Positions 570 through 55,411 of a DNA stretch of 64,000 nucleotides are shown here, piece by piece. The stretch is from Heterodontus francisci. Lineage: Eukaryota. A program made the translations under genes and the position numbers. Position 1 is the stretch's first letter, and each line of letters starts with the position of its first letter. The notes beneath the pieces were generated by a model. That model was not told the origin of the DNA and made no database searches. It worked only from the letters and a program-made list of their open reading frames with translations. The DNA lies in contig NC_090412.1 of assembly GCF_036365525.1 (NCBI RefSeq), positions 5,374,123 to 5,438,122 on the forward strand. Direction: 5' to 3'.

Positions 570-827
570 AGGCCAGCTAGTCTCACCTCTGAGTTAGAAG
601 ACTGTCTACTCTTTATAAATTAGGATGATGTTCCAGTGCAGAACTGAGGTGAGATGTTTAAATTAGGTCATCTATGTTGGTTGTAATGGATGACTAAAGA
701 TTTCTTCATGGTATTCAAAGAGTAACGGGAAGATCTCCTAGTGTCAGAGGGAATATAATTCGCAACGAAACACAGTGACAAGTCTTTCATCTCATAACTA
801 AATGGCTGCTGTATTTTCCAGTGGAAC
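570..827 (+). mobile_element. Old DeuSINE, 5' part; 3' part continues at about 1833-1921 after the RTE insertion
   Basis: Degenerate colinear match to other copies; the tail remnant resumes after the RTE. Confidence 0.6.
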
Positions 828-1781
828 AGAGAACTCCTCTTTGCTGACGATGCTGCTTTAACATCTCACACTGAAGAGTGTCTGCAGAGACTCTTCAACA
901 GGATTGCAGCTGCCTGCAATGAATTTGGCCTAACCATCAGCCTCAAGAAAACGAACATCATGGGGCAGGACGTCAGAAATGCTCCATCCATCAATATTGG
1001 CGACCACGCTCTGGAAGTGGTTCAAGAGTTCACCCACCTAGGCTCAACTATCACCAGTAACCTGTCTCTAGATGCAGAAATCAACAAGCGCATGGGTAAG
1101 GCTTCCACTGCTATGTCCAGACTGGCCAAGAGAGTGTGGGAAAATGGCGCACTGACACGGAACACAAAAGTCCGAGTGTATCAGGCCTGTGTCCTCAGTA
1201 CCTTGCTCTACGGCAGCGAGGCCTGGACAACGTATGCCAGCCAAGAGCGACGTCTCAATTCATTCCATCTTCGCTGCCTTCGGAGAATACTTGGCATCAG
1301 GTGGCAGGACTATATCTCCAACACAGAAGTCCTTGAAGCGGCCAACACCCCCAGCTTATACACACTACTGAGTCAGCGGCGCTTGAGATGGCTTGGCCAT
1401 GTGAGCCGCATGGAAGATGGCAGGATCCCCAAAGACACATTGTACAGCGAGCTCGCCACTGGTATCAGACCCACCGGCCGTCCATGTCTCCGCTATAAAG
1501 GCGTCTGCAAACGCGACATGAAATCGTGTGACATTGATCACAAGTCGTGGGAGTCAGTTGCCAGCATTCGCCAGAGCTGGCGGGCAGCCATAAAGACAGG
1601 GCTAAAATGTGGCGAGTCGAAGAGACTTAGTAGTTGGCAGGAAAAAAGACAGAGGCGCAAGGGAAGAGCCAACTGTGCAACAGCCCCGATAAACAAATTT
1701 CTCTGCAGCACCTGTGGAAGAGTCTGTCACTCTAGAATTGGCCTTTATAGCCACTCCAGGCGCTGCTTCACAAACCACTGA
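828..1781 (+). pseudogene. Uninterrupted C-terminal part of the RTE reverse transcriptase ORF (317 codons, no native start)
   Basis: The frame of ORF 960..1781 stays open upstream to 828 (RELLFADDAALTSH...KKTNIMGQD). Confidence 0.85.
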
Positions 1782-3802: not shown

Positions 3803-4496
3803 AGCCTTTCAGAATTCTGTGTCCCATTCAAAAGAAGAATTATAGTGACACTTGCATGAAACTAGGTTGTTTTGCTTTCTTTCGAATTAATTGCTGCAAT
3901 TTTAAAATGGATTTACAGTGGATACAATAGATGAATAGAAAACAAACTGAGGTACTACAACAAATAGGTAAAAATTTACTTCTGGAAAGATTACAATAAT
4001 AATTTAGAAAATGATAATCATGCAAAGGTGGATAGCATTCGAGATGAGGCAGGCAATAATTATGTTGACAATGCTTCACAATAAAGGCCTGGCTCTGTTG
4101 ATGCTGAACAGTGCCTTCAACTCCTACAGAAGCCTTCACAAGCACTTGCATACAATTGACAGAGATTGCCTACCAACTCTCGTCCATTCGCTTTTCATAA
4201 ACATTTGGAAGCTGCAGGTTGTGAAAGCTACACTTGACAACACAGATACAAAGTGGATAATACAACTGTCCTCCGCCTCTTCAGCCACTCCAGCGTTCCC
4301 CGATTTGGCCCCTTTCACATGTACAAATTGATATAGGCCCTGTGTTCTTGACCCTCTCCCAACCAATCGTCTCAAATAACTTAACCATCTTTAATTTTGG
4401 AAAATCAGTTGCAGAGTCTGCGCGTAATGAATAGAAAATGAAATCAGGCAAAGTTCTTCTTAATATGTTCCATATAACTGACAATATAATAATGAT

Positions 4497-4770
4497 TAGT
4501 GGAGGTTACAGAGATAGGAAGGGATGTGCGGCATTGAGGGATTTGAAAACAAGGAAAGGAATTTTTAAATCGAGGAATTGCCAGACTGTAAACTAAGGTA
4601 GGTCAGCGAGCATCGGGATGATGGATGAACAAGACTTGGTGCGAGATAGGATATTGCAGCAGAACTCAAGTTTATGGAGGGTGCAGTGTGGGAGACCAGG
4701 CAGGAGAGCCTTGAAATAGTCACGTTTTGAAGTAACTAAGGTCTAGATGAGGGTTTCAGCGACAGATGTT
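4497..4770 (-). mobile_element. L2 LINE fragment
   Basis: Similar to 19030-19225 and to the reverse complement of 34016-34260. Confidence 0.7.
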
Positions 4771-5211
4771 GCATCTTTAGAGTTGGAAACTTGCAACCTA
4801 ACAATGACACACTTAGATTTCGATAACATCTTGTCAGATCACTGAAGCATGTACAAGTGCTTCAGACAGTGGATTACTTTCAGCAGCATAGGAATTGTTG
4901 TTTAAGTGTTAAAGGTGCTTTTATATTGCAGTTTTCATCCAGGCTCGGCAAGTCCAGCACCTGGGAGCCAATTCCTTATGTTCATGTTGTTTTGTGGACT
5001 CAATCTTACTTGAGTTTACATGTCTGCTGCATTTAATTCTACAAGTGCCAAGAGCAGCAATGAGCTGCCAGCACTTGAATGAAAGGCATGAAAATATAAA
5101 AGACACTTTGAGCAAGTGGGCTCTGTTTTTGTTGTTATGTGTCTCGTTTGCGACTGAAAAAACATCAGAGACTAGATGTTGCAGTTTTGGAGAATAAAGT
5201 TAAACAGAAAG

Positions 5212-5416
5212 CTGTTTAAGGAGTCCTGGAGTAAATGATGATTTTTAAGGAGGAGGTAGATGGATTTTTGAAATCTTGGGGAGTCAAGGGTTATGCAGAG
5301 CAGGCGCAAAAGAGGAGTTGAGGCCTAAGACAGATCAGCCATGACCTTATTGAATGGCGGGGCAGGCTTGAGGGGCTGAATGGCCTACTTCTGCTGCTCT
5401 AATGTTCTTATGTTCT
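5212..5416 (+). mobile_element. CR1 LINE 3' tail
   Basis: gatcagccatgaccttattgaatggcggggcaggcttgaggggctgaatggccta followed by a short tandem tail. Confidence 0.8.
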
Positions 5417-5574
5417 ATTCTAGTTATAAATGTCACAGCAAAAGTGATGGTTTTGGAAGGTAGAAAATGTGGATTAAGCCCCAGAGTCCAGAGGTTGAGT
5501 GATCAAGCTTCGGGCACTGATAACGTGCTCTGTGTTAAACCTTTCATGGTTTTTGTTGCTTTACGAATTTCGAA

Positions 5575-5953
5575 GGTGAAGGGGTGATTTGATCGAAGTT
5601 TTCAAGATATTAAGGGGAACTGATAGGGTCGATAGGGAGAAACTATTTCCGCTGGTTGGGGAGTCTAGGACGAGGGGGACGCAGCCTAAAAATTACATCC
5701 AGGAATTTCAGGAGTGATGCTCGGAAACATGTCTACGCGCAAATGATGGTAGAAATTTGGAACTCTCTTAAGCCAATTACAGTTGGCGCGAGGTCAGTTT
5801 TTAATTTTAAATCTGCGGTTGATAGATTTTTGTTAACCAAAAGTATTGAAGGATACAGGGCAAAGGGATATGGAATTAAGTCAAAAATCAGCCATGATCT
5901 CATTGAATGGCAGAACAAACTCGAGGGGCTGAATGGCCTCCTCCTGTTCTATG
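5575..5953 (+). mobile_element. CR1 LINE 3' fragment
   Basis: Peptides GDLIEVFKIL and IWNSL..FKSAVDRFL, plus the same 3' tail. Confidence 0.85.
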
Positions 5954-6494
5954 AGGGCAATCAAAAGCTGCTGAAAACTTTGGTACTAATGTTGAGCATT
6001 GGATTCAGCCGAAAGAGTAACTTTCCCTTTCGAGACTGACTGACATACCAAGCATTTTTAAAATTCTGCTCTTTCCATTTTGAATTTTCCTGCGTTTACA
6101 GTTTTTAATTGTTGCATCTCTAGTGGTTAAAATTTTATGTTATTTCATTATGAATAAAAATTTCCCCCAACTTGCCGAAGCAACACTGGCATCCTTATTC
6201 CTTTTCAACAGAGACTATCTTTTTCTCCTGACCTCACTAATGAAGGTCTGAAGCACATTCTCATTGTGGAAAATGAGTAATCAACAAATTTAGTAGCAGT
6301 GTAGTAGCCTTAGTGAGTTATATGAGCCTCATTTAACTGTTCTCTCACTAATACACCATCCCTCCCATCCCCCCAAGCAGAGCTTAGGCTGCTTCATCAT
6401 TGAAGTTCAGCCAACTGCTCCAGCCCTCCAAATCCCAAAGACTTTGGCTTCTTGCTATTCGTTCAATTGTTGTTTTTAATTGCATAAAAACTGT

Positions 6495-6715
6495 GCTCAG
6501 CTGTGGCTCCGTGGGTAGCATTTGCAGTGCTGAAGAGTGGTGCACTGCTAATATTTATCCCACGATCAACATCACTGGTCATTATCACATTGCTGTTTGT
6601 GGGATCTTGCTGTGGGCAAATGTGCAGCCTCGTTTCCTATATTGCAACAGTGACAATCCTTCAAAAGAAGCTCATTGGCTGTAAAGTGCTGAGGTGGTGA
6701 AAGGCAGGATATTAT
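6495..6715 (+). mobile_element. Internally deleted DeuSINE
   Basis: tRNA-like head gctgtggctccgtgggtagca joined to the 3' half of the family. Confidence 0.7.
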
Positions 6716-6795
6716 TAAGCTGACCAATGGGAATTTAGCCATAGTACTAAACCTTGAAGCGTCTGACTAACAGCGCGTTAACTTCATCCAATATA

Positions 6796-6871
6796 TGAGT
6801 GCCCAAGATCAGGACTTTGCTGGGGGTGATACTATTCACACACCTCGAAAGCTCCTGATCTTGGGCACTCA
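6796..6871. repeat. Inverted repeat/hairpin with perfect 19-bp arms
   Basis: tgagtgcccaagatcagga (6796-6814) is the exact reverse complement of tcctgatcttgggcactca (6853-6871). Confidence 0.95.
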
Positions 6872-7130
6872 GACATCCTGTTGGGACATTTTGGAGCCCA
6901 TCAACTTTTATTGACAAGTACAGAACACTCCACTCTGGGATCTGAGGCTCCTACATTCCCCTGTTTGTTCAATCACTAAGCAGCAGGCTCTGAACCATAA
7001 AGAGAAAAATTCAGACAAGGAGGGGTTGAGTCGGGCCTTCACCAAGTTGCAGTGATGCCCTGTGCCTCAGGACTGGCCCACACCCTGTTCAAGTATCAAT
7101 GGCCAGATGACCACACCCATTAGATTCCAT

Positions 7131-7727
7131 AGCCGGAATTTTACCACGGGCTTCGGGACTCCAACATTGGGGCGGAAAGTGGGTCCTGAGCCAGCACTTG
7201 ATGCCAGTGGGACCCACTCAGCCATTTTACCGCAGGCAGCCTCCTAATTGGCTGCCTGCAGGCTCGCTGTCCAATTAAGGATGGTGAGCAGGCTCCTGAT
7301 GCTGCTGGCTCGGTCAGAGGGCTGGCACCTCTGAAGCCTCAGCAGCGTCACTGGGAGAGGTGGTTGCTGCTGAGGCAGGCAGGAGACCTCGGCAGCTCAG
7401 ACAGGTAAGTAAAAAAAAAAAATTTCAGTGAGCCAAGGGTTGGAGGCGAAAGCCCTCCAGGGAGATCGTTGGGGCTTTGGAGGCTGCCTTCCCTATCCGT
7501 GGCCCCCTTCTTTGGGCAATGGAACCTCTGCCTCCAATGAACCCTGGGCTGTCACAGAAAGGCCACCTCCATTAAGCTGGCAGCCTCCTCATGTGGCGAA
7601 GGGGGTGGTGACGCCCTCCCCTCGGCATAAAATGGCCCTTAATAAGGCCTTCACATATGCAAATTGGCTGCCCCAACATGGCACCCCCCTGCCCCACCGC
7701 CACCTGAGGATTGGTAAAATTCTGCTC
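7131..7727. mobile_element. GC-rich MITE (PIF/Harbinger-like)
   Basis: Imperfect TIRs agccggaattttacc / ggtaaaattctgctc; interior motifs shared with 41566-43800. Confidence 0.7.
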
Positions 7728-7847
7728 TGTGTTTGTGACTGGCAGGTATGTTGAGTTGTGCACTGGCTGGACTGTAAAGACTCTGTCAGGTGTCAGACCT
7801 GGCTCTGTGGTTCATTTGTGCTGTGCAGTCCTTTATCGAGATTAATA

Positions 7848-8155
7848 ATAAACACAGAAAATGCTGGAAATACTCAGCAGGTCTGGCAGCATCTGTAGAG
7901 AGAGAAACAGAGCTAACGTTTCCGTTGTTGAACTCAGTGTTCAGCCTGGAAGGCTGCAAAGTGCCTCATCAAAAGATGAGGTGCTGTTTCTCGAGCTTAT
8001 GTTAAGCTTTATTGGAACAGTGTAGGAGGATAAGAACAGAGAGGTCAGTGTGGGAATGGAGTGCCAAGGGACTGGAAGATCAAGGTCAGATTTGTGGACT
8101 GAACAAAGGTATTCCGAAAGCACGCACCCAATCTGCATTTAATCTCCCTAATGTA
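7848..8155 (-). mobile_element. Penelope-like element fragment (pLTR end fused to the GIY-YIG C-terminal region)
   Basis: 7848-7922 matches the pLTR module; 7925-8155 is similar to 48970-49215. Confidence 0.75.
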
Positions 8156-9619
8156 TCTCATTCTTGCTTTTGTAGATCCTCCATTGTAAATAAATTGGAA
8201 AAGCAGTTTCATCTGCATTAATGGTAATGTTCTCTAGCTTCTGGATTGAGTTGTGAAGGGAATCCTACCGAAATTCCAGTAAGCGGTTTATCATGAAGGA
8301 GATTAGTTGTTAGATGACACTAGCCTGGTTAGGGATTGGGGAAAAGACATAGGGTTACCATTCCTATGGGTTACCATTCCTAAGGCACACAGTTTGCTTA
8401 CAGAAGCTGTTCTCGGGCTGCTTTCCCAGAGTGCAAGACACTGTGAGATAAGACTGAACCAGGAACAACTGGGCTACGTTGAACTTTATGACTCCTCCTT
8501 TAGGACCAGAGAGCATCATACAACACTTCAACATCACAAACAGTAGTTTCTCGGCTTTTTCTGGGTGTCAAAGTCTCTGAGCAGTGAACTATTTTGGTAT
8601 CTTTTAAGATTCAAAATCCCATCCTTGAATCCATCATCCTCAGCTTTGTTACTTGGTTGAAAAATAATGCCAGATCCTCCAAAACAGTCAGACATTCACT
8701 AAATGACTGCAGGTATGCACCTTTATAACGTAGATGGAAACAAAAACACAGAAAGCAGAATTATTTATTGATGGAGTCTTTACATTTTTAAACAATGATC
8801 TGCATTCTGAATAATAAAACAGATTGTTGGTGCTGGATTTCCTCTTGTGTGAATCTCATGTTTCAATTTACATGTTGAATGTGTATGTGGTGCAGTGATG
8901 CCCTTTTTCTATAGCACATTTTTTACTACTCAGTGGCTTTGTGTATTGCTCCTGTTCCCCACTGATGAGTCAATGGCGATAATAGAAAATAGCAGATGGA
9001 TTGAAGTTGAGCAGATAATGATAGGTGAATGCTGTTGATGGGTGATAGGTAGACTATCCATCACCACTGCTAAACAGTGGATTTCAACTTCCTCCCTTCA
9101 CTGATTGTTTTGGCAGGAATGTCCCTGATGGCCTGTCCCCTTCTGTCTGGGTCAAAGCATTGTCTTACATTCCCTCAGTTAGGACATTTGCCCGCAGGGC
9201 TGTCATCGGAAATCAGCTGTCTGTTAAAACTCCGACCTCTTCTTTTCTTATGCAGTCTTTGTCTCTCTCTAACTTTTAATGAAATCTCTAATAGTCCATT
9301 TCTTTTGGGAGGGGGGTGCATTTCTTTAACCACTTATATACTTGTTTTGTGGCTGAATCTGTACGTTTGACTCTGTTTTGCTGTGATTTATATGTCCTTG
9401 GCTCCTGATACAGACCTGTCGTATATCAATTATTAATATTTAGTTACTGCCCTATTGTTGATGAATTGACATACTGTGCAGCTCCATTTCGAGACTGCAG
9501 CAAATAGAGGGCGTGTCATATTCTGGGAGCTCTGAAAGGAAATTGTCACTAGTGGATGGACAAAATGCTTATCAACAAAGGAATGGTAGTGTGTGTGTGT
9601 CAGCCACTCAGCCACATTG

Positions 9620-19225: not shown

Positions 19226-19576
19226 GTTAGAAGAAACATAAAATCAGAAAACCTGACTCTTGCCTCTATCCTCCTTACAAAGGGAATGCTTATCTTTCAG
19301 TTCCCAGTTCTGATGTAGGACCTGCACCCAAAATGCCAAGCTGTCATTTTCCTTTATGGACATTGGTCTTGCTCTACTCGTTTGTTCATAGTGCACATTT
19401 TCAACATTCACAATTTCTTTCATCCTTCAAACGTTGTTTTATTTTATGGCACAGTAATTAAAAATTCCTGTATGCCAACAGAGTAGCCTTTCCTCCATTC
19501 ACCACTGCAACTGATACCCACTCTATCCAAAGTGAAATAGTAAGTGGCATCTTCTACAAGTGAACCATAGTTGGTG

Positions 19577-23310: not shown

Positions 23311-25335
23311 CAACCCCGGACAGCCCACTTTAACCTCCTTCCTAAAATCCACCAACAGGACTGTCCCGGCAGATCCATCGTTTCACCTTGTTCCTGCCCC
23401 ACTGAACCTATTTCTTCCTATCTTGACTCTATCTTTTCTCCCCTGGTCCAGTCTCTTCCCACCTACATCTGTGACTCTTCTGACGCCCTAGGTCATTTTG
23501 ACAATTTCCAATTTCCTGGCCCTAACCGCCTCCTCTTCACTTTGGACGTCCAATCTCTCTACACCTCCATCCCCCACCAGGACAGTTTGAGGGCTCTCTG
23601 CTTCTTCCTTCAACAGAGTCCCGACTAGTCCTCATCCACCACCACCCTCTTCCGCCTGACTGAACTTGTTCTCACATTGAACAACTTCTCCTTCAACTCA
23701 CTTCCTTCAAGTAAAAGGTGTTGCTGTGGATACCCATTTGGGTCCTAGTTATGCCTGTCTTTTTGTGGGATATGTCGAACATTCCTTGTTCCAGTTCTAC
23801 TCAGGCCCCCTCCCCCAACTGTTTTTCCGGTACATTGATGACTGTATCGGTGCCGTTTCCTGCTCCCGCCCAGAACTGGAAAACTTTATCAGCTTTGCTT
23901 TCAATTTCCACCCTTCTCTCACCTTTACATGGTCCATCTCCGACACTTCCCTCCCCTTCCTCGACCTCCCTGTCTCCCTCTCTGGGGATAGGCTGTCTAC
24001 TAATATTCATTATAAACCGACCGACTCCCACGGCTACCTCGACTACACTTCCCCACACCCTGCCTCCTATAGGGATTCCATTCCATTTTCCCAGTTTCTC
24101 AATCTCCGACGCATCTGCTCTGATGATGCTACCTTCCACAACAGTGCTTCTTATATGTCTTCCTTTTTTCCCCAACTGAGGATTCCCCCCCACTGTTGTT
24201 GACAGGGGCCTCAACCGTGTCCAGCCCATTTCCCGCACCTCTGCCCTCACCCCTTCCCCTCCCTCCCAGAACTGCAACAGGGTTCCCCTTGTCCTCGCTT
24301 TCCACCCCACCAGCCTTCACATCCACCATTTCCACCACCTCCAGCGTGATGCCACTACCAAACGCATCTTCCCCTCCCCTGTCAGCATTCCGAAGGGATT
24401 GTTCCCTCCGCGACACCTTCATCCACTTCTCCATTACTCCTGACACCTCGTCCCCTTCCCTTGCAATCGCAAGAGGTGTAATACCTTCCCTTTACCTCCT
24501 TGCTCCTCACTATCCAAGGCCCCAAACACTCCTTTCAGGTGAAGCAGCGATTTACTTGTACTTCTTTCAATATAGTATACTGTATTCACTGCTCACAATG
24601 TGGTCTCCTCTACATTAGCGAGACCAAACATAAATTGGGTGACTGCTTTGTGGAACACCTCCACTCAGTCTGAAAACATGACCCTGAGCTTCCTGTCGCT
24701 TGCCATTTCAACACACCCCCCCCCCCTGCTCTCAAGCCCACATCTCTGTCCTGGGATTGCTGCAGTGTTCCAGTGAACATCAACGCAAGCTCGAGGAACA
24801 ACATCTCATTTACCGATTAGGCACACTACAGCCTGCCGGACTGAACATTGAGTTCAATAATTTCAGAGCATGACGGGCCCTCCATTTTTTCTAGGTTTAC
24901 TTTGCATTTTTTATTTGTATTTAATTTTATTTTAGTTTGTTTCATCATTACACTTTTTTTGTACCATGTGCCTGCCCACTGTTTTTTTTTCATTTTTTTT
25001 TCATGTTTTTGCTTGTGGCTAGGGCTGTTCATTATTCTGTCATTTAACACCCTCTCTGCGCTAACGCTTTGTCTTTCACCACAGCATTAACACACTCTTT
25101 GTTTTTGCCTTTGCCCCATGACCTCCTTGTCAGTTATTCTCTGTGACCCTCTGTCCTATCAACACCTTCCCATTTGTTCTCTTTTGCCCTACCCCCACTT
25201 TATTTGCTTAAAACCTATTACATTTCTAACCTTTGCCAGTTCTGATGAAAGGTCACTGACTGGAAACATGAACTTTGCTTCTCTCTTCACAGATGCTGCC
25301 TGACCTGCTGAGTAGTTCCAGCACTTTTTTGGTTT
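23311..25335 (+). mobile_element. Penelope-like retroelement (RT + GIY-YIG endonuclease + pLTR), 5'-truncated, decayed
   Basis: Peptides LLPKIH..CPGRSIVS, TLDVQSLYTSIP, GPSYACLF, FRYIDD, PFLD and YKPT; GIY-YIG-like IVYCIHCSQCGLLYISET; pLTR with a hammerhead remnant at 25238-25274. Confidence 0.92.
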
Positions 25336-25579
25336 TATCATCGAATAAATTACGTACCTTGTTATTGCCCATTGAGTCTTTTGTGTGCACAGTAGATATG
25401 TAGTTAATTGTATTGTCAATGTTGTAATCAATTTAACATTTTAAAGCTTTTCGTTGGGATTAATGCAAGGCGATAGGCGCTTTGAATCTCCAATGTTCAG
25501 CATCTTGAAAATCACCTCAACTGGCATTGAGCACTGAGGGGACTTTACTTTGATGTGTAACTGTTAAGATTATTGAAAT

Positions 25580-28020: not shown

Positions 28021-29431
28021 ATCACTGCACCTCATCCAAAACAAACTCATTCAGCAACCCAGTCTTGCTGATCTACACTGCACTTAGCCCTCTAATACAT
28101 TAAATTTTACATTCTTGCCCTCAGCTTCAATCTTTCCTTGTCCTCACCCTCAACTTATCTCTACAACCTCCTCTAGCTTTAGATCTGCTCTCACGCCCTT
28201 TGGTCCTCCAACTCTCGACTTTTTACCACCTCCCTTTGTGCTGGAATTGGTGAGGACCATTCAGCTGTTTGAGTTCCATTCTCAGGAACTCGACATAATC
28301 GCCTCTTGCTTCCCCTCCTGCTCCCGCTCAATTAACATTCCTCTCAAACCTGAATTTATTGGCCAAGCTTTCAGCCACCCTCCTGCTCTTTCCTTGCACA
28401 GATTTCTATGGAGCACCACCTACTGAACAGATCATCATGTGGCAAAACATGGTTAGCCAGAATACACTGACCAGTGCTCTCAGTTAGAACCCTGGACCTC
28501 ACTAAATTTACCTGGGTGGCGGGCAGCCAAAAGTATATTCCAGTTCATAGAGAACATTGTAGCAGTGTGAGATGGCCATTCCAGATTGATAAATGGCTAG
28601 CATTTCCATGATTGGCTCAAATATCAGCAACCACATGTGCAGCATTGTGACAGTCACACAGCAATAACCACATGGAATTGTCTTCACTCACTCTGAGTCT
28701 TCAGAGACTTTGATACATAACTGTGTCATCTGCTGCTGAGAGACTGCAGCTGAGGTATGGTGCAGGGTTCACAATGAATCTTGCCCTCCACAGACCTTCC
28801 CTTTCGTTCTTTCCTTCCCCCGCATCCCCCCCCCCTTTTTCCTTGCATCTGTAGTTGCTAATAAACTAAGTCTTTAACTTCTCCAAGTTGTGGTGAAAAG
28901 TCATTGGCCTGAAATGTTAGCTCTGTTTCTTTCTCCACAGGGATTCTGGTGAGATGACTTACAACCAGAGAGACAGCACATTATGCAGAGGACCCTCTCC
29001 TGAGTTAATGGTTATTCTACCTCTCTTGTAATGGCTCATTGTTTAAAATGCTTGGGGACATTTTCTGATGGACGACCTATTGGTGTCAGTGCCTAGAGCA
29101 TTAAATTCCTGCCAGTATTACTTTAGGACTGTGTTAACCTGTTCATTTAAGAAATAGCCTTAAGCACCAAAAGATGGCCGAGTAGAAATTGTCCCAGCCA
29201 TCATCACCTGTCTCATTGTAGTATTCCGCAAGTCAGATCCAGGGGAGTTAAAACATCAACTTAGCTGATATACAAAAGGTGCAAGTAATGTTTTAAAGCA
29301 AACAATTCAAATTAAGTTAGGAAAAACAAGAATGAAATCAAAGTGATGGAAGATAAATGGCTAACTCAGTTTTACGTAGTGTATATCAGCATGTAGTGTG
29401 TCATCTGAACAACATTAATTCAGCATTTACA

Positions 29432-32295: not shown

Positions 32296-32720
32296 TCTTG
32301 TGTTTCTCCAGAGCCTTTCACAATCTCAGGACATCCCAATGTGCTTTACAATGAAGTACATTTGAAGTATAGTAGTAAAATACATCTGACAAAAGGTCAT
32401 CGACCTGAAACATTCTCTGTTTCTCTCTCCACAGATGCTGCCAGACCTGATGAGCATCTCCAGCATTTTCTGTTCTTACTTTTGCAGTGTGCTCACTGTT
32501 GTAATGTAGGAAACACAGCAGCCAATTTGCGCACAGCAAGCTCCCACAAACAGCAATGAAATAAATGACAAGATCATCTGTTTTTGTGATATTTATTGAG
32601 GGATTAATATTAACCAGGACACTGGGGAGAACGCCACTGCTCTTCTTCGAAATCGTGGCCGTGGGCTGATTTGCATCCACCTGAGAGAGCAGACGGAGCT
32701 TCAGTTTAACATTTCGCCTA
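32296..32720 (-). mobile_element. DeuSINE interrupted by a Penelope pLTR module
   Basis: The family sequence stops at 32373 and resumes at 32477. Confidence 0.85.
32374..32476 (+). mobile_element. Solo Penelope pLTR/hammerhead module (core mutated)
   Basis: ctgacaaaaggtcatcgacctgaaacatt..ctctctccacagatgctgccagacctg; degenerate 17-bp TSD. Confidence 0.8.
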
Positions 32721-38699: not shown

Positions 38700-39679
38700 T
38701 CTGTGAGGTTGGATGATTTGGTGGTCTTCTGGATGAAGTTGTATTCTTGAAGTCTTTGGCTGGTCAAAGTGCACTTTGTGGCCGGCCCGCTTAGCTCAAG
38801 GTTTTCTTGGAGACAGACTTGTAGGTGGCTCTCTTCCCCTGGTCTCTCTCTGTAGCAATCTGTCGGCTTGGAGGATCCACAGTCATGAATGGTTTTCAAA
38901 CTTATGGTGTTATCTGGGGGGAGAGAGAGCGAGATAGAGGAAGACACACGCCCTTTCTGCCGCTGTCTGAGTTACTCACTTGACTCTCTTTGTTCAAGGA
39001 AACTCCCAGCTTTCACAGAAATGGAGAGGCGGTTACAGGCTGCCTCAGTGTATTCTCTTCGAATGAGATTCACATTTCGGAATTGGCTCCCCAGGCCCCA
39101 GGATGCCAATATTTACACTTGGAGGGGTTTGCTCTTTCAAAGTCAAGGTGTTAGGTTTGCCTTGAATGCTAAGCTAATGAAGCAATCTTAGTTTATTCAA
39201 ATGCTTAGAGCAAGCCATTGTTCTGAGTCCTCAGACCTCTGTCTCCTGTGGGACCTTCGAATGTGAAAAGGTGTTTCTGATACAAATTGCAGTGGTCATC
39301 TTGTGCCAGTTTCTTAAAAGTTAACTGCAGGATTTTTCCATTAAATGTTTAATGTAAGTTTCCAACCAATGAATTAATATAAAAGCAAAATACTGCGGAT
39401 GCTGGAAATCTGAAATAAAAACAACTTTCACGGATGTAGGTGGGAAGAGACTGGACCAGCGGAGAAAAGATAGAGTCTAGATAGGAAGAAATAAGTTCAG
39501 TGGGGCCTTGAATTAATATTCCTTATTTGGCATATTGTTTTTTTTTGACCCTACTATATGGAGTACTGCTGTGTACTCTGACAGAGTTTCTGAATTAGGA
39601 TGGACTTCTGCAGTAGTAGATGAGTTCATTGTGGAGTTATGCAGGCTAATGTGGAGTGGTACAATAGCATATAATAATG

Positions 39680-39830: not shown

Positions 39831-39859
39831 GTTATCAATAAAACTTCCATTGTGATAGG

Positions 39860-40080
39860 AACAGAAAATGCTGGAAATACTCAGCAGGTCTGGCAGCATC
39901 TGTGGAGAGAGAAGCAGAGTTAACGTTTCAGGTCGATGACCTTTCATCAGAATCATGAAAAGTCACAGACCTGAAACGTTAACTCTGTTTCTCTCTCCAC
40001 AGATACTGCCTGACCTGCTGATTATTCCCAGCATTTTCTGTTTGTTTTCAGATTTCCAGCATCTGCGGTATTTTGCTTTT
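39860..40080. mobile_element. Head-to-head pair of Penelope pLTR/hammerhead modules
   Basis: 39860-39952 (-) and 39955-40080 (+) are near reverse complements. Confidence 0.9.
39918..39952 (-). ncRNA. Minimal hammerhead ribozyme motif (core intact, stem I shortened)
   Basis: Minus strand reads TT-CTGATGA-A-AGGTC-atc-GACCT-GAAACGT-T-AACT. Confidence 0.65.
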
Positions 40081-40139
40081 GTTGAGGTTTGAGATTTAAC
40101 AGTTTATACATAAATATACATTTATACATTTATACATTG

Positions 40140-41565: not shown

Positions 41566-43800
41566 AGGCTGAATTTTCTGCCCGCGGCAGGGCTCCCGGC
41601 ACCGGACTGAAAAGGCAAGGGGAATCCCACCTCGGCCAGCTGAAGCCCACTCGGTGCGATTCTACAGTGGCAGACCAATTAACAGCCCGGCACTGGGACC
41701 CCCAACCCTTTAAAGAGGATGATACTGCATGCACGAGCTGCCGGTCAATCACAGGGCCATGTTCTTTGGGAACTGGGCTGACCGATCCTTTGTCCCCTTC
41801 ACCGTCAGGTCAGATTACCTGAAGGTGCTGGGGATATGGTTCGGAAGGGCCGGGGCGTGCACCAAAACCTAGGAGGAGCGAGCAGCCAAGGTAAAACAAA
41901 AGTTGAGCATGTGGGGGCAGCGATCTCTCTCCATTGTGGGTAAGAACCTTGTCATCGGGTGCGAGGCGCTCACGTTGTTGCTGTACGTGGCGCAGGTCTG
42001 GCCCATACCCCACTCCTGCGCGGTGGCAATCACCCAAGCCATTTTCCGCTTCATCTGGGGATCTAAAATGGACCGGGTCCGGAGGGACACGATGTTCAAA
42101 TCTCTGGTTAAGGGCGGGAAAAATGTACCCAACGTGGCCCTCATCCTGATGACCACCTTCGTGTGTGGCTGCATCAAGCTGTGTGTAGACCTCCAGTACG
42201 CAAACTCCAAGTGTCACTACGTGCTGAGGTTCTATCTGTCCCCGGTGTTGCGAAGGATGCGCCTGGTCACATTGCCGCGGAACGTTCCATGCAGTTGGGC
42301 CGTGCCGTACCACCTATCCTTCGTGGAGCAGTTTCTGTGGGAAAACACCTTTGACCACCGGTCCATCAGGCAGTGGTCTGCACGGTATGTCCTCAAGGCC
42401 CTACGGGAAAAGGAGACGGTGGATCCTGTCGGATGGTTCCCCGAGCAGACCGTCAAAGTCATTTGGCGGAATGCCTCATCGCCAGAACTTTCAAACAAGC
42501 ACCAAGACGTAGTTTGGCTGGTGGTGAGAAGGGCCCTCCCCGTCAGATCCTTCATGCACACCCGAAGTCTCGCCCCCTCCGCACAATGACCCGCGGTGGC
42601 TGTGGTGGGGAAGAGACGGTCGCCCACCTCCTCCTGGAATGTGTCTTCGCAAAGCAGGTGTGGAAAGAGATGCAGTGGTTTTTGTCAAGGATCATCCCAA
42701 GCAGCTCTGTAACACAGGGGTCTGTGCTCTACGGGCTGTTCCCAGGGACGTACACCGAGACACACATCAACTGCTGCTGGAGGACTATCAATTCGGTGAA
42801 AGACGCCCTTTGGTCTGCCCGAAACTTGCTGGTCTTCCAGCGCAAAGAGTTGTCCACCACCGAATGTTGCAGACTGGCACATTCCAAGGTCCAGGACTAT
42901 GTGCTGAGGGACGCACTAAAGCTTGGGGCAGCCGCAGCAAAGGCTCGATGGGGAAAGACCACAGTGTAAGGTCCCCCCACCAAGCTGAACTGAGGGGCTG
43001 GATCCATGGGAAACCCCTCGAACTGTATCGGGAAAATTTTGTGTGCTGTAAATGTAAAAATGTATATGGCATGACAAATGTGAAATGGAAGGGTTGTGAG
43101 GCAACTCATGATTGTATTGAAGGAAACTGATCATCTTTGCACTGTTTGTATTTTTTGACTTGATGCTGTTTTAAACTGTTTGGGAATGTAATTTTTACAG
43201 ATTTTTATGAATAAAGTATATTTTGGAAATAAAAAAAAAATCACAGGGCCGGCAGCTCAGCAGTGTTGATAGCGTCACCGGGAGCAATGGCCACTACGAT
43301 ACTGCAGCGGCCTTGGACATAGGCTCAGCGCTGGAGACCCAGACCTCAGGTAAGTGAGGCGGGGTCGCCAGGGCCAGTCCGGAAGGCTCTGGCGATGGTG
43401 GGGGGAGGAGGGGCGTTGAGTACAAGGAGAAGGGGTAAAAGGAATGTGTTTTGTTTGCTGATGGGGCATGTCCACGGGCGATAGATTGCCCACGGAGGAG
43501 AGCCCCTCGTTTTACTGGGTGATCTCCCCATGTGGCGGAGAACCCCTGCCACTGGCTTAATGCCAATGGCTGGGGGAAGAGGCCCCTAAATGTCTGTTAA
43601 TAGGCCTCTTAAAGGGCTCAATTGGCCTCTGGGTGGGAAGGCCATCGTCGGTCTAACCCTCCCCCGACAAAATTACATTGCGACGGGGCAATGACGGGCC
43701 CTCTGTTTCCATCCCCCCACCCCCCCATGCCTCCTATCACAATTTAATGGCCCCCCCCACTCCTCTGAACCTGTCTCGGGGGGCCCATAAACTTCATCCC
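41566..43800. mobile_element. PIF/Harbinger-like MITE hosting a Tx1 insertion
   Basis: TIRs aggctgaatttt / aaacttcatccc; 3-bp flanks AGC/AGT; the interior is contiguous across the Tx1 TSD. Confidence 0.78.
41759..43238 (+). mobile_element. Tx1-clade (L1 group) LINE, 5'-truncated
   Basis: ORF2 C-terminus (LKVLGIWF, WGQRSLSIVGK, FRFIWG, CxxxxC..ETVAHLLLEC zinc finger, WSARN); AATAAA at 43210 and poly(A); 12-bp TSD aatcacagggcc. One in-frame TAG (about 41870) and one frameshift (about 42588). Confidence 0.92.
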
Positions 43801-48100: not shown

Positions 48101-48697
48101 TTTAACAGAACCATGATGTAAATGAGCTTTACTGAAGCACATCTGGGCTTTCTTCATGTAACAAAAAGAATCTGAAGTTTCTGACAGGTCCTGCACTTCC
48201 CTTTTTGGGCCTGTCCTATTAAAAACTTATCACTTTGCAACAAAATGCAGTGAGCCAACAATCAACAGGAGTTTTTGTGAATTAAATGCTTTAAATGCAA
48301 ATACAAAGAGCTATCGAGTGTTAAATGTCACTTGACTTGAATCTTTTCGAAGACTGTAATGTACCCGATCCAAAAATAAAGAAGTTTAGAATTCCCTTCC
48401 TTTGTTCCAAGAAATACTTTGAATTTAAAAATGTTGCTGTGGATTGTCACGATCCCCAGAGTGGGTGATGATATTTTATTAAACCAACCCAGGCACTCTG
48501 TGTTAAATGGCATTGATCTTTCACTTTACTGTTTTCAGTCTTGAGAACCAAACCATTCTCTTAGGAATTCAAGTTCACCTCTCAGGTAGTTTTTCCAAAT
48601 TGTATAATTATCTTGTGTGATGTTCTGTTGAGATAGTCTGGGTTATGGAGCACAGTTAAATCGGACCTGTCCCTTTAAGGCCACTGCTCAAGTACTT

Positions 48698-49612
48698 CAC
48701 AGAATAGCTGACCAGAAGGTCGTGGAGCAAAGGCAAACAGTATGTTAATGGTGTGTTGAAAGACAAAGCATTAGTACAGATAGGGTGTTAACTGACTGAA
48801 TATTGAACAGCCGCAAGTATCAAACATGAAAAATAAAACAGTGGGTAAGCAAACTGAACAAACTAAGATGAAATAAAATAAAATAAACACAAAAAAACAT
48901 TTTAAAAAGGAAAAAAGAAAAAAATATCTAAAAATAAAAGTAAAATGGGGGGCCTGTCATGCTCTGAAATTATGGAACTCAATGTTCAGTCCGGCAGGCT
49001 GTAGTGTGCCTAATCGGTAGATGAGATGCTGTTCCTCGAGCTTGCGTTGATGTTCACTGGAACACTGCAGCAATCCCAGGACAGAGATGTGAGCATGAGA
49101 GCGGGGAGCAGTGTTGAAATTGCAAGCAACCGGAAGCTCGGGGTCCTGCTTGCGGACTCAGCGGAGGTGTTCTGTAAAGCGGTCACCCAGTCTGCGTTTG
49201 GTCTCCCCAATGTAGAGGAGACCACATTGTGAGCAGCAAATACAGTATACTACATTGAAAGAAGTACAAGTAAATTGTTGCTTCACTTGAAAGGAGTGTT
49301 TGGGGCCTGGGATAATGAGGAGAGAGGAGGTAAATGGGCAGGTATTACACCTCCTGCGATTGCAGGAGAAGGTGCTGTGGGTAGGGGGCCTTTGCTCCAT
49401 GACCTTCTGGTCAGCTATTCTGTGACCTTGTCCTATCAACACCTTCTCCTTTGTTATCTCTTGCCCCACCCCCGCTTTACTTGCCTATAACCTTTTACAT
49501 TTCTAATAGTTGCCAGTTCTGATCAATGGTCACTGACCTGAAACGTTAACTCTGCTTCTCTCTCCACAGATGCTGCCAGACCTGCTGAGTATTTCCAGCA
49601 TTTCTTGTTTTT
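48698..49612 (-). mobile_element. 5'-truncated Penelope element with an inverted pLTR (49388-49612, +)
   Basis: Peptide CNRRRCNTC..NVVYCICCSQCGLLYIGETKRRLGDRFTEH (GIY-YIG); 37-bp inverted repeat 48698-48734 / 49388-49424. Confidence 0.92.
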
Positions 49613-50194
49613 AAGTCACCTGACTTGTTCCATTTCAAACTCCAACATATATCTCCTCCCTAGCTCAGCCCCAAAGTCACCTCTATAAGTCAACAGACAC
49701 ATATCAAGCACTGGAGTCAGACCTGGTGCATAAATCTCTTGTGAATAACATGCTCGGGATGAACAGAGCACCCGCTTCTTGTCTCTGAATTTCATTTCAT
49801 TGCCCATATTGCCTAAGAACCTAGCCAATATTCTCTATGAATAAACCTAGTGCCTCCCACCAGCTGGCTTGCTCCAAATCTATGGAAACCAAGCCTTAGA
49901 CCTGGGATAACTCAGTTGTACCTGTGCATTTTTTTGTATGCTGGTTTTTCTGTTTGGATTTTCGGCCCTGGAGATTTGGAAAGGCCTCATTTTTGTACTG
50001 GTGTCTGGTATAAAAACCCCACACCAGAAACTCAGTGATGCAAAGCTCTATGGCTCTGGATGAAGGATTGGACACCATTGCATTAAACTAACTAATCAAT
50101 TTATTCACAGTTTGCCACTCACAGAAGCAAGCAGCAGCAATGGGCTGTTGTAGTCAGTCCAAACAATATCAACTTTCCAACCAGTTAATAAAGT

Positions 50195-53171: not shown

Positions 53172-53305
53172 GGCAAAAAAAAACTGCAGATGCTGGAAAT
53201 CTGAAATAAAACACAAAAATGCTAGAAATACTCAGCCGGTCAGGCACCGTCTTTGAAGAGAGAAACAAAGTTAGCATTTCCAGTCCATGACGTTTAGTCA
53301 GAACA
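53172..53305 (-). mobile_element. Degenerate solo Penelope pLTR module
   Basis: Colinear with 54570-54704. Confidence 0.8.
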
Positions 53306-54355: not shown

Positions 54356-54563
54356 ATCACTTTCTGTAGGAAGGGACTATAGGGATATTGAGTGATTAGA
54401 ATGAGGGTGTATCTCCATGTTTGAGATAGTAATTGAGGATCTGTGGAAAGAGAAGCCTCAAAATGTTGAATAGCCTTTGATTAGTCCAAGCTTCCATTGT
54501 TTCTTATAATGAAACAACCATCATCCCCAGTTTGGCAGGGGCCATATGGATAAAGGTTGCATA

Positions 54564-54723
54564 ATAATACAAAAGCAAAATACTGCAGATGCTGGAAATC
54601 TGAAATAAAAACAGGAAATGCCGGAAATACTCAGCAGGTCCGGCAGCATCTGTGGAGAGAGAAGCAGAATTAACGTTTCAGGTCAGTGACCCTTCATCAG
54701 AACTGGCAAAGGTTAGAAATGTA
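54564..54723 (-). mobile_element. 160-bp solo Penelope pLTR module with an 18-bp TSD
   Basis: atggataaaggttgcata at 54546-54563 and 54724-54741; the insert matches the PLE ends at 25220-25335 and 49498-49612. Confidence 0.92.
54668..54704 (-). ncRNA. Minimal type I hammerhead ribozyme motif, core intact
   Basis: Minus strand reads AGTT-CTGATGA-A-GGGTC-act-GACCT-GAAACGT-T-AATT: stem I 4 bp, stem II 5 bp, palindromic ACGU stem III. Confidence 0.75.
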
Positions 54724-55411
54724 ATGGATAAAGGTTGCATATTGATGCACCCCTCCATTAGGAGAATCATAAAATACTCTACCTCCCAACTGTACCATCA
54801 GATTTAGTTTTTTAACACAATCATGTTTAAAAAACAATTTCCGTTGCTTTGAACCAAAATATGGCAGATATATTATAAGAAACAAGTTAATAAAGCTTGT
54901 GTCTTATTATTCTTTCAAGCCTAACATATTACCACCAGATGGATATTAAATGGGCAGAGAAACTATTCAATTAAAAAGGATACAACGTTGGCCAAGGAAG
55001 ATTCCACTGTGATAATGTTTTGAATGAGCAGTTCGATGAAAGAAGCCTCGAAATCTGTTTGCAATTTCAGTGGCAAACAGTAACACACGTGTATGATGTT
55101 ACCTTGTCCTCTGTTTTGACGTAGGAATTTAACTTTTTTTTCGTCGCAATTCCCTTAAAATTGGCCAAACTGACACACAAGATCACGGAATTTCAGGCAT
55201 AAATTGGGTTTCCGCCATCTTTTGCGCTAGTTTGAAAAATTGCGCTAGAAGTTGGACCCGCCCACAAAACTGGCCACACTCCCAGATCAAATTAATCACC
55301 ATGGAGAATATTTTATTAAATTTGCTAAGAAACTGCCTAGTGTACACCTATATAACTAGCAGATGGTTCAGGTTTGCTTATTAAAGTTATTAAAAATTGG
55401 GTTACTCATAG

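Follow-up and report, generated by a model that had tools for sequence, protein, structure and literature searches.

Penelope-like elements (PLEs) of the EN+ Neptune/Nematis type (Craig et al., 2021, PMC8557442; Arkhipova et al., 2013, PMC3846280) leave 5′-truncated insertions with a pseudo-LTR (pLTR), partial tandems, an adjacent inverted 5′-truncated copy, an optional 30–40-bp tail at one end, target-site duplications (TSDs), solo pLTRs and a Zn-finger-like linker between reverse transcriptase (RT) and GIY-YIG, all of which are shared by the family described here. Metazoan PLEs also carry minimal hammerhead ribozymes (Cervera & de la Pena, 2014, PMC4209133) that resemble ours in their short stem I, the extra base between positions 9 and 10.1 and a palindromic 15.2–16.2. 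They occur mostly as single scattered motifs, thousands per genome, and are ascribed to truncated PLEs, the same pattern as here. In PAc, a Poseidon element of the green anole (Frangieh et al., 2024, PMC11167929), two internal initiation sites bound the tail and both target strands are cut and extended, as seems to apply here; uncut RNA is the template, and 5′ truncation of the RNA shortens the product. PAc differs in belonging to another clade and in that its open reading frame (ORF) starts inside the hammerhead, whereas it starts about 135 nt behind the hammerhead here; in the available text, neither a transcription start nor genomic run-off stubs are reported. Animal non-LTR retrozymes (Li, Clavereau & Pollet, bioRxiv 10.64898/2026.07.22.740005; Cervera & de la Pena, 2020, PMC7229834) are likewise non-coding, pLTR-related and of similar length, with a type I hammerhead, but are defined as tandem repeats with a hammerhead in each unit, whereas the insert studied here is single and a short direct tandem was not found.

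The window is a 64,000-nt stretch of the Heterodontus francisci genome. The initial annotation had described in it a 160-bp retrotransposed insert between exact copies of an 18-bp TSD, carrying a Penelope-type minimal hammerhead, and this description is upheld. The duplication, ATGGATAAAGGTTGCATA, is exact and precisely 18 bp long without extension on either side; the boundary between insert and TSD is uncertain by about 2 nt because of the match noted for the right copy in Table 1. Mismatched flank pairs, used as a control, gave a duplication of at least 10 bp in just 6 of 1500 draws. Positions m1–m160 were numbered along the minus strand of the insert, m being 54724 minus the window position.

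Table 1. Features of the insert and of related copies in the window.
Feature	Position	Strand	Remarks
TSD, left copy, 18 bp	54546–54563		
TSD, right copy	54724–54741		Inner 2 nt also match the element
Insert, m1–m160	54564–54723	minus	Probable pLTR + tail end module of a Neptune-type PLE
m1–m19	54705–54723	minus	Element sequence, 19 nt, preceding the preferred start
m20, A of CCAGTTC	54704	minus	Preferred 5′ end in sister copies; putative transcription start; first base of stem I
Minimal type I hammerhead motif, m20–m56	54668–54704	minus	Core 54700–54694; stem II 54692–54680; GAAA 54679–54676; predicted cut 54672/54671
Tail, about m125–m160	54564–54599	minus	Bounded by the family's two preferred 3′ ends
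Longer copy of the same family	23713–25338	plus	Broken RT + GIY-YIG ORF, 3′ UTR, module ending at the short 3′ end
Head-to-head insertion	48697–49618		Inverted ORF/UTR arm 48697–49388 (minus); module 49388–49618 (plus), core broken
Head-to-head pair of short arms	39855–40084		m21–m119, 39855–39953 (minus); m27–m157, 39955–40084 (plus); one insertion, short + tailed arm
ORF-end fragment joined to module	7847–8155	minus	ORF end 7925–8155; m42–m120, 7847–7925; internal deletion
Short decayed copy, m23–m121	32385–32481	plus	
Short decayed copy, m21–m147	53178–53304	minus	

Sequence comparison indicates that the insert very probably represents the terminal repeat and tail, 160 bases in all, at the end of a Penelope-like retrotransposon. 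The same sequence ends elements with RT and GIY-YIG and stands before their ORF; because it ends these frames and also directly precedes the ORF, the module was read as pLTR plus tail. Its nearest genomic match, other than itself, is a long Penelope copy (97.4%). In a search biased to copies that span the whole query, 23 of the 29 nearest matches run at least 50 nt further upstream, five run about 7–21 nt further (three of these being one duplicated locus) and one starts at m20; none starts at m1, the insert's own 5′ end. A 530-codon open stretch in a long copy gave weak matches to RVT_1 (E = 0.0009) and GIY-YIG (E = 0.001), both under the Pfam cut-offs, and between the two lies a CxCxxCxxC linker (CNCRRCNTC). 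A Zn-finger-like motif between RT and EN is a mark of Neptune/Nematis (PMC8557442). On this linker sequence the element is classed as Neptune-type, although the mark is shared with Nematis; Poseidon, the first clade guess, was dropped in favour of this assignment.

In the young family, the copies of which are 96–99% alike, the whole module stands immediately before the ORF in 19 of 30 loci fetched by the 5′ part of the ORF, loci that share flanks in part and are not all independent; the ATG follows about 30 nt behind m160. One 42-mer of this family has 15,592 exact genomic matches. On contig C1 (23221419–23228040), three matches to the young family follow one another on one strand at a spacing of exactly 3,290 bp; this is probably a tandem of full-length copies, and the spacing would give the unit length. 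As in known PLE ends, 5′ truncation at variable positions is frequent and comes with TSDs. The insert is most likely an ordinary truncation of an abundant PLE and not a separate mini-element. Insert and hammerhead motif are both real, the locus itself is ordinary, and it adds a further member to the known class of truncated PLE ends with a hammerhead.

The motif reads as had been claimed: stem I AGUU/AAUU, core CUGAUGA, one extra A, stem II GGGUC/GACCU and then GAAA-C-GUU, with the predicted cut between m52 and m53. The core residues are complete, and every component of a minimal type I hammerhead is present (CUGANGA…GAAA, NUH, stems I and II, the extra base and a palindromic stem III remnant). 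Stem I of this copy has one G–U pair at a position where the family has G–C. Differences from the published PLE hammerheads (PMC4209133) are the 5-bp stem II, the G–U at 10.1–11.1 in this copy and U4C in the youngest family. A descriptor requiring the core, a 4-bp stem I, a stem II of at least four pairs and UH found one intact motif in the whole window, the insert's own. In 1.6 Mb of other DNA of this genome it found 24 intact motifs and 15 more with U4C, and none in a shuffle of that DNA, which bears out the very high hammerhead density that had been proposed; the density is far above that of coelacanth and Xenopus, with 4,000–9,000 motifs (PMC4209133). An Rfam scan of the window gave no hammerhead family up to E = 1, its best match being an unrelated miRNA model on the 39.9-kb hairpin.

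The hammerhead fold has an energy of −4.2 kcal/mol, compared with −9.6 kcal/mol for the best fold, and the lowest-energy structure is a different one. Unusual stability was not found for this copy (z of −0.25 and −1.40) or for the young family (0.27 and −0.81), and when two monomers were co-folded the dimer hammerhead did not emerge as the best structure. N7 and loop II vary among family copies, and the fit to the fold is loose. In an alignment of 84 rows, pair 10.1–11.1 is G–U in 28, A–U in 27 and G–C in 24, never A–C, but these states go back to a few changes between subfamilies. Stem I does not vary, the remaining stem II pairs show no compensatory change, and m25 and m44, which do not pair, covary as tightly as 10.1–11.1. 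In the youngest and most uniform family (L132:670–706, L141), U4C and a canonical G–C at 10.1–11.1 travel together in 23 of 24 copies. A variant with the core CCGAAGA, considered as a short-only subfamily, was rejected as such; it is the youngest autonomous family. U4C has been reported to lower hammerhead activity in vitro (PMC3088659), monomeric minimal hammerheads were inactive in the 2014 study (PMC4209133), the PAc hammerhead required protein (PMC11167929) and eight of nine Xenopus dimers showed no cleavage (bioRxiv 10.64898/2026.07.22.740005). The insert has no partner motif in direct tandem. Its hammerhead is predicted to be no more than a weak self-cleaver, and it probably makes no cut on its own.

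Two genome samples were analysed. The unselected sample, 1.6 Mb in total, was drawn from large contigs at round coordinates, as 20 stretches of 10 kb and 28 blocks of 50 kb. For the young sample the first 88 matches to the young family on contig C1 were considered and 86 used, the two omitted ones belonging to a single tandem. A profile search of the 1.6 Mb gave 147 matches, 122 of which reach the terminal region; this is roughly 76 module ends per Mb or, by rough extrapolation to the 6.0-Gb assembly, about 460,000. The 3′ ends cluster in two peaks, near m120–125 and m155–162, about 36 nt apart, and in PAc the tail is tied to two internal initiation sites (PMC11167929). In the family, m112–m160 (54564–54612, minus strand) contains two similar T-rich motifs with a terminal AG, TTTTTRTTTCAG and TTTTATTTTAG, one at each preferred 3′ end. 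A ATTTCCAGCAT-like repeat stands before each of them, and they may serve as the two initiation signals. Among unpaired copies, which span all lengths, 13 of 70 are flanked by duplications of at least 10 bp, and among inverted pairs 15 of 31; because both kinds carry them, a TSD is no mark of a separate family. TSDs measure 10–18 bp here and 8–10 bp in rotifer PLE copies (PMC8557442, PMC3846280).

The 1.6 Mb contain 31 head-to-head pairs, which join a short and a tailed arm in 20 of the 21 classifiable cases; among 17 young pairs this holds for 16 of 16. About 49% would be expected, with p of about 1e-5 for each sample. The inverted arm and the one-sided tail are both published PLE traits (PMC3846280, PMC8557442), and an optional tail on one arm is what these inverted insertions have. 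At the centres of short inverted pairs (L252, L266, L277 and the L211–L215 block) there are often small extra duplicated pieces of the first 10 nt of the module, which suggests repeated template jumps at the start site.

The 5′ ends are not evenly spread. In the 1.6-Mb sample 31 of the 93 copies reaching m18–27 end there, compared with 1 of 109 at m48–57, around the predicted cut. In the young sample 30 of 86 begin at m18–23, none at m48–57 and six between m−6 and m11, while 36 reach beyond m−40 with scattered ends, some of which reflect where the fetched DNA or the reference sequence stops. In these counts each arm of a pair contributes its own end, and L223 and L224 stem from a single duplicated event. 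Upstream, the distribution breaks off sharply at m18–20, and ten of the 30 young peak copies begin at m22, right after an AG preceded by a branch-point-like motif. The initial annotation had named a continuous spread of 5′ ends as the sign of ordinary truncation; that spread was found in part, the short copies sharing a preferred 5′ end. The available parts of the EN+ PLE studies (PMC8557442, PMC3846280) describe no sharp 5′-end peak with an extra G at the first base of the hammerhead.

The base before m20 was counted genome-wide by exact match after two A/T bases, excluding the element's own upstream sequence, and was G in 981 cases and T in 272. At the interior control m37 the G:T count was 7:25 (odds ratio of m20 versus m37 12.9, p = 4e-11), and the genomic background ratio is 0.77–1.5. 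A second control, m28, gave 54:22 and taken whole did not differ from m20 (p = 0.15), which tells against the reading preferred below; 42 of its 54 G rows are AAG, ascribed to putative microhomology with the inverted arm, and without AA-prefixed rows the count is 12:16. For this copy's own subfamily, a count by eye of the first 100 junctions out of 233 gave 70 G and 30 T. At 100 of 2,576 G–m20 junctions the upstream bases were diverse, representing varied flanks or inverted arms. A TTG junction class, considered as an ORF-end deletion derivative, was discarded: none of the 100 junctions listed was of this kind, and three looked like point changes in unbroken element. The young family has a TATAA 29 nt ahead of m20. 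The m20 A stands in TCAGTT/CCAGTTC, which we take to be an initiator-like motif. An untemplated G is the mark of reverse-transcribed caps in L1 and SVA (PMC4859970). From these sequence features it is rather likely that m20 is the capped start of the element RNA and that cDNA runs off it. Four runs of assembled contigs, three of them only guessed to be RNA, were compared with about 1 kb around the young module and all covered it; contigs are a kind of data that shows no starts, none of the 15 joints listed among 20 lay at m21/22, and no conclusion was drawn from them.

The insert starts at m1 and ends at the tailed site. Because its 5′ end lies 19 nt upstream of m20 it is no run-off product of that start, and because m1–m19 are present it falls outside the fixed-start class. 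The family-wide start-site pattern matters more than the locus, which is no example of it.

Our best overall explanation, which we hold with good confidence, is a Penelope end piece produced by priming at the tailed site and an early stop, with run-off from a capped start accounting for the sister stubs. Directly observed are that the sequence is the same as at the ends of long copies, that 3′ ends are preferred at two sites and that TSDs occur in every length class. By analogy with PAc in vitro (PMC11167929), the enzyme would nick the target and prime cDNA inside the RNA at m120–125 or m155–162. Both target strands would prime, one per site, yielding a head-to-head pair of a short and a tailed arm, and the RNA copied would be one left uncut by the hammerhead. 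With one module before the ORF and another after it, cDNAs could be primed in either. Those from the rear module would end at scattered places and give insertions such as 54564–54723, for which the element's own reverse transcriptase would have begun at the outer of the two preferred sites and stopped early, 19 bases upstream of the hammerhead. Those from the front module would likely run off the capped start at m20 after just 100–140 nt and leave fixed-start stubs with an extra G, probably dead ends. Against this explanation, the mechanism is transferred from a Poseidon-clade element to a Neptune-type one, and the 18-bp TSD exceeds every other TSD measured (maximum 17). As to the cap, an enzyme adding G at any run-off end would yield an equal excess without one, and the TATA-like motif is weaker (TTAAAA) in older subfamilies.

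A joint reading is offered tentatively, at slightly less than an even balance: the hammerhead would begin at the capped first base of the Penelope mRNA, and cleavage behind m52 would remove a capped leader of 33 nt, thus acting as an off-switch. Only uncut RNA would be copied, and the fixed-start stubs, about a third of young copies, would be run-off cDNAs of the first 100–140 nt, with each target strand priming at one of two internal sites. If this is true, both the Penelope start site and the priming on two strands are recorded in the genome to the base. As a clue to the Penelope cycle the start-site signal is worthwhile and testable. Exact coordinates for testing this copying cycle and the role of the hammerhead come from the fixed start, the extra G and the rule that a short arm is paired with a tailed one. 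No comparable genomic analysis of these three features was found in the literature searched, mainly main texts from outside the subscription journals; Fig. S2 of the PAc paper, on genomic ends, may bear on it.

The fixed start might instead mark a place where the enzyme stops or joins, at the hammerhead RNA structure or at a non-capped RNA end, the extra G coming from terminal-transferase activity. Working 3′ to 5′, however, such an enzyme would first run into the stems at m56 and m44, yet few ends lie there; this reading would also have to account for the sharp upstream edge of the distribution and for a stop at so weak a hammerhead fold. We consider this unlikely, although the peak does coincide with the 5′ edge of stem I, junction microhomology is common and the m28 control is ambiguous.

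The proposal that the module forms a separate non-autonomous family of retrozyme or SINE type, the short copies of which are transcribed and re-copied by the Penelope enzyme, went unsupported and is now highly improbable. Very many short TSD-flanked copies with fixed ends do exist, animal retrozymes derive from pLTRs (bioRxiv 10.64898/2026.07.22.740005), and a stub could be transcribed, given that Penelope of D. virilis has an internal promoter (PMC2377424). A family of this kind was expected to show short-only subfamilies, and none was found: in a coarse test with four diagnostic positions on 84 copies, each of the four main subfamilies has long and short members (four long and six peak members in that of the insert, the other three being mixed too). 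No same-strand pair of intact motifs within 1 kb occurred among 39 in the 1.6 Mb, and no young copy ends at the cut site; units ending at the ribozyme cut, as in retrozymes, are not what the DNA ends indicate (near the cut, none of 86 and 1 of 109). As pLTR plus tail the module belongs to autonomous elements, and the insert itself lies off the 5′-end peak. PAc needs RNA beyond its initiation sites (PMC11167929), RNA that by a cross-clade argument the stubs would lack. To call a TSD-flanked solo hammerhead a retrozyme, one would need either a tandem or a lineage made up of short copies alone.

Least probable, and very doubtful, is that the fixed start is a splice acceptor and that RNAs spliced into m22 were copied: CTAAC/CTAAT, pyrimidines and a CAG ending at m21 would suit it, as would the m22 starts of ten of the 86 young copies (a third of the peak copies, and in this respect a point against the capped start) and the D. 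virilis intron end that maps to the 5′ end of helix I (PMC4209133), but TSDs abut the module with no common upstream exon, L251, L254 and L282 retain m19–21 bases not derived from the target, the bases upstream of the 100 listed G–m20 junctions are diverse flanks or inverted arms, and the extra G before m20 is left unexplained.

Returning to the Penelope end piece as the preferred explanation, the other module copies listed in the initial annotation all exist except that at 19305, where there is only a 19-bp match (E = 0.12) that the profile did not recover; not all of them are solo modules (Table 1). The copy at 23713–25338 reaches upstream to about 23300, and that at 28792–28940 runs on upstream into element-like sequence. 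Weak matches to RVT_1/DUF6451 and zf-RVT, under the Pfam cut-offs, at 798–1781 (plus) and 42355–42969 (plus) represent LINE-type fragments; five other long frames in the window matched no Pfam family. A long hairpin at 6788–6881, unrelated to the module, received weak scores from two miRNA models. One further insertion, at 39374–39506, had not been listed: a tail arm, m110–160 (39374–39424, minus), stands head-to-head with an ORF fragment (39428–39506) that matches 23396–23474 at 95% and L048 at 100%.
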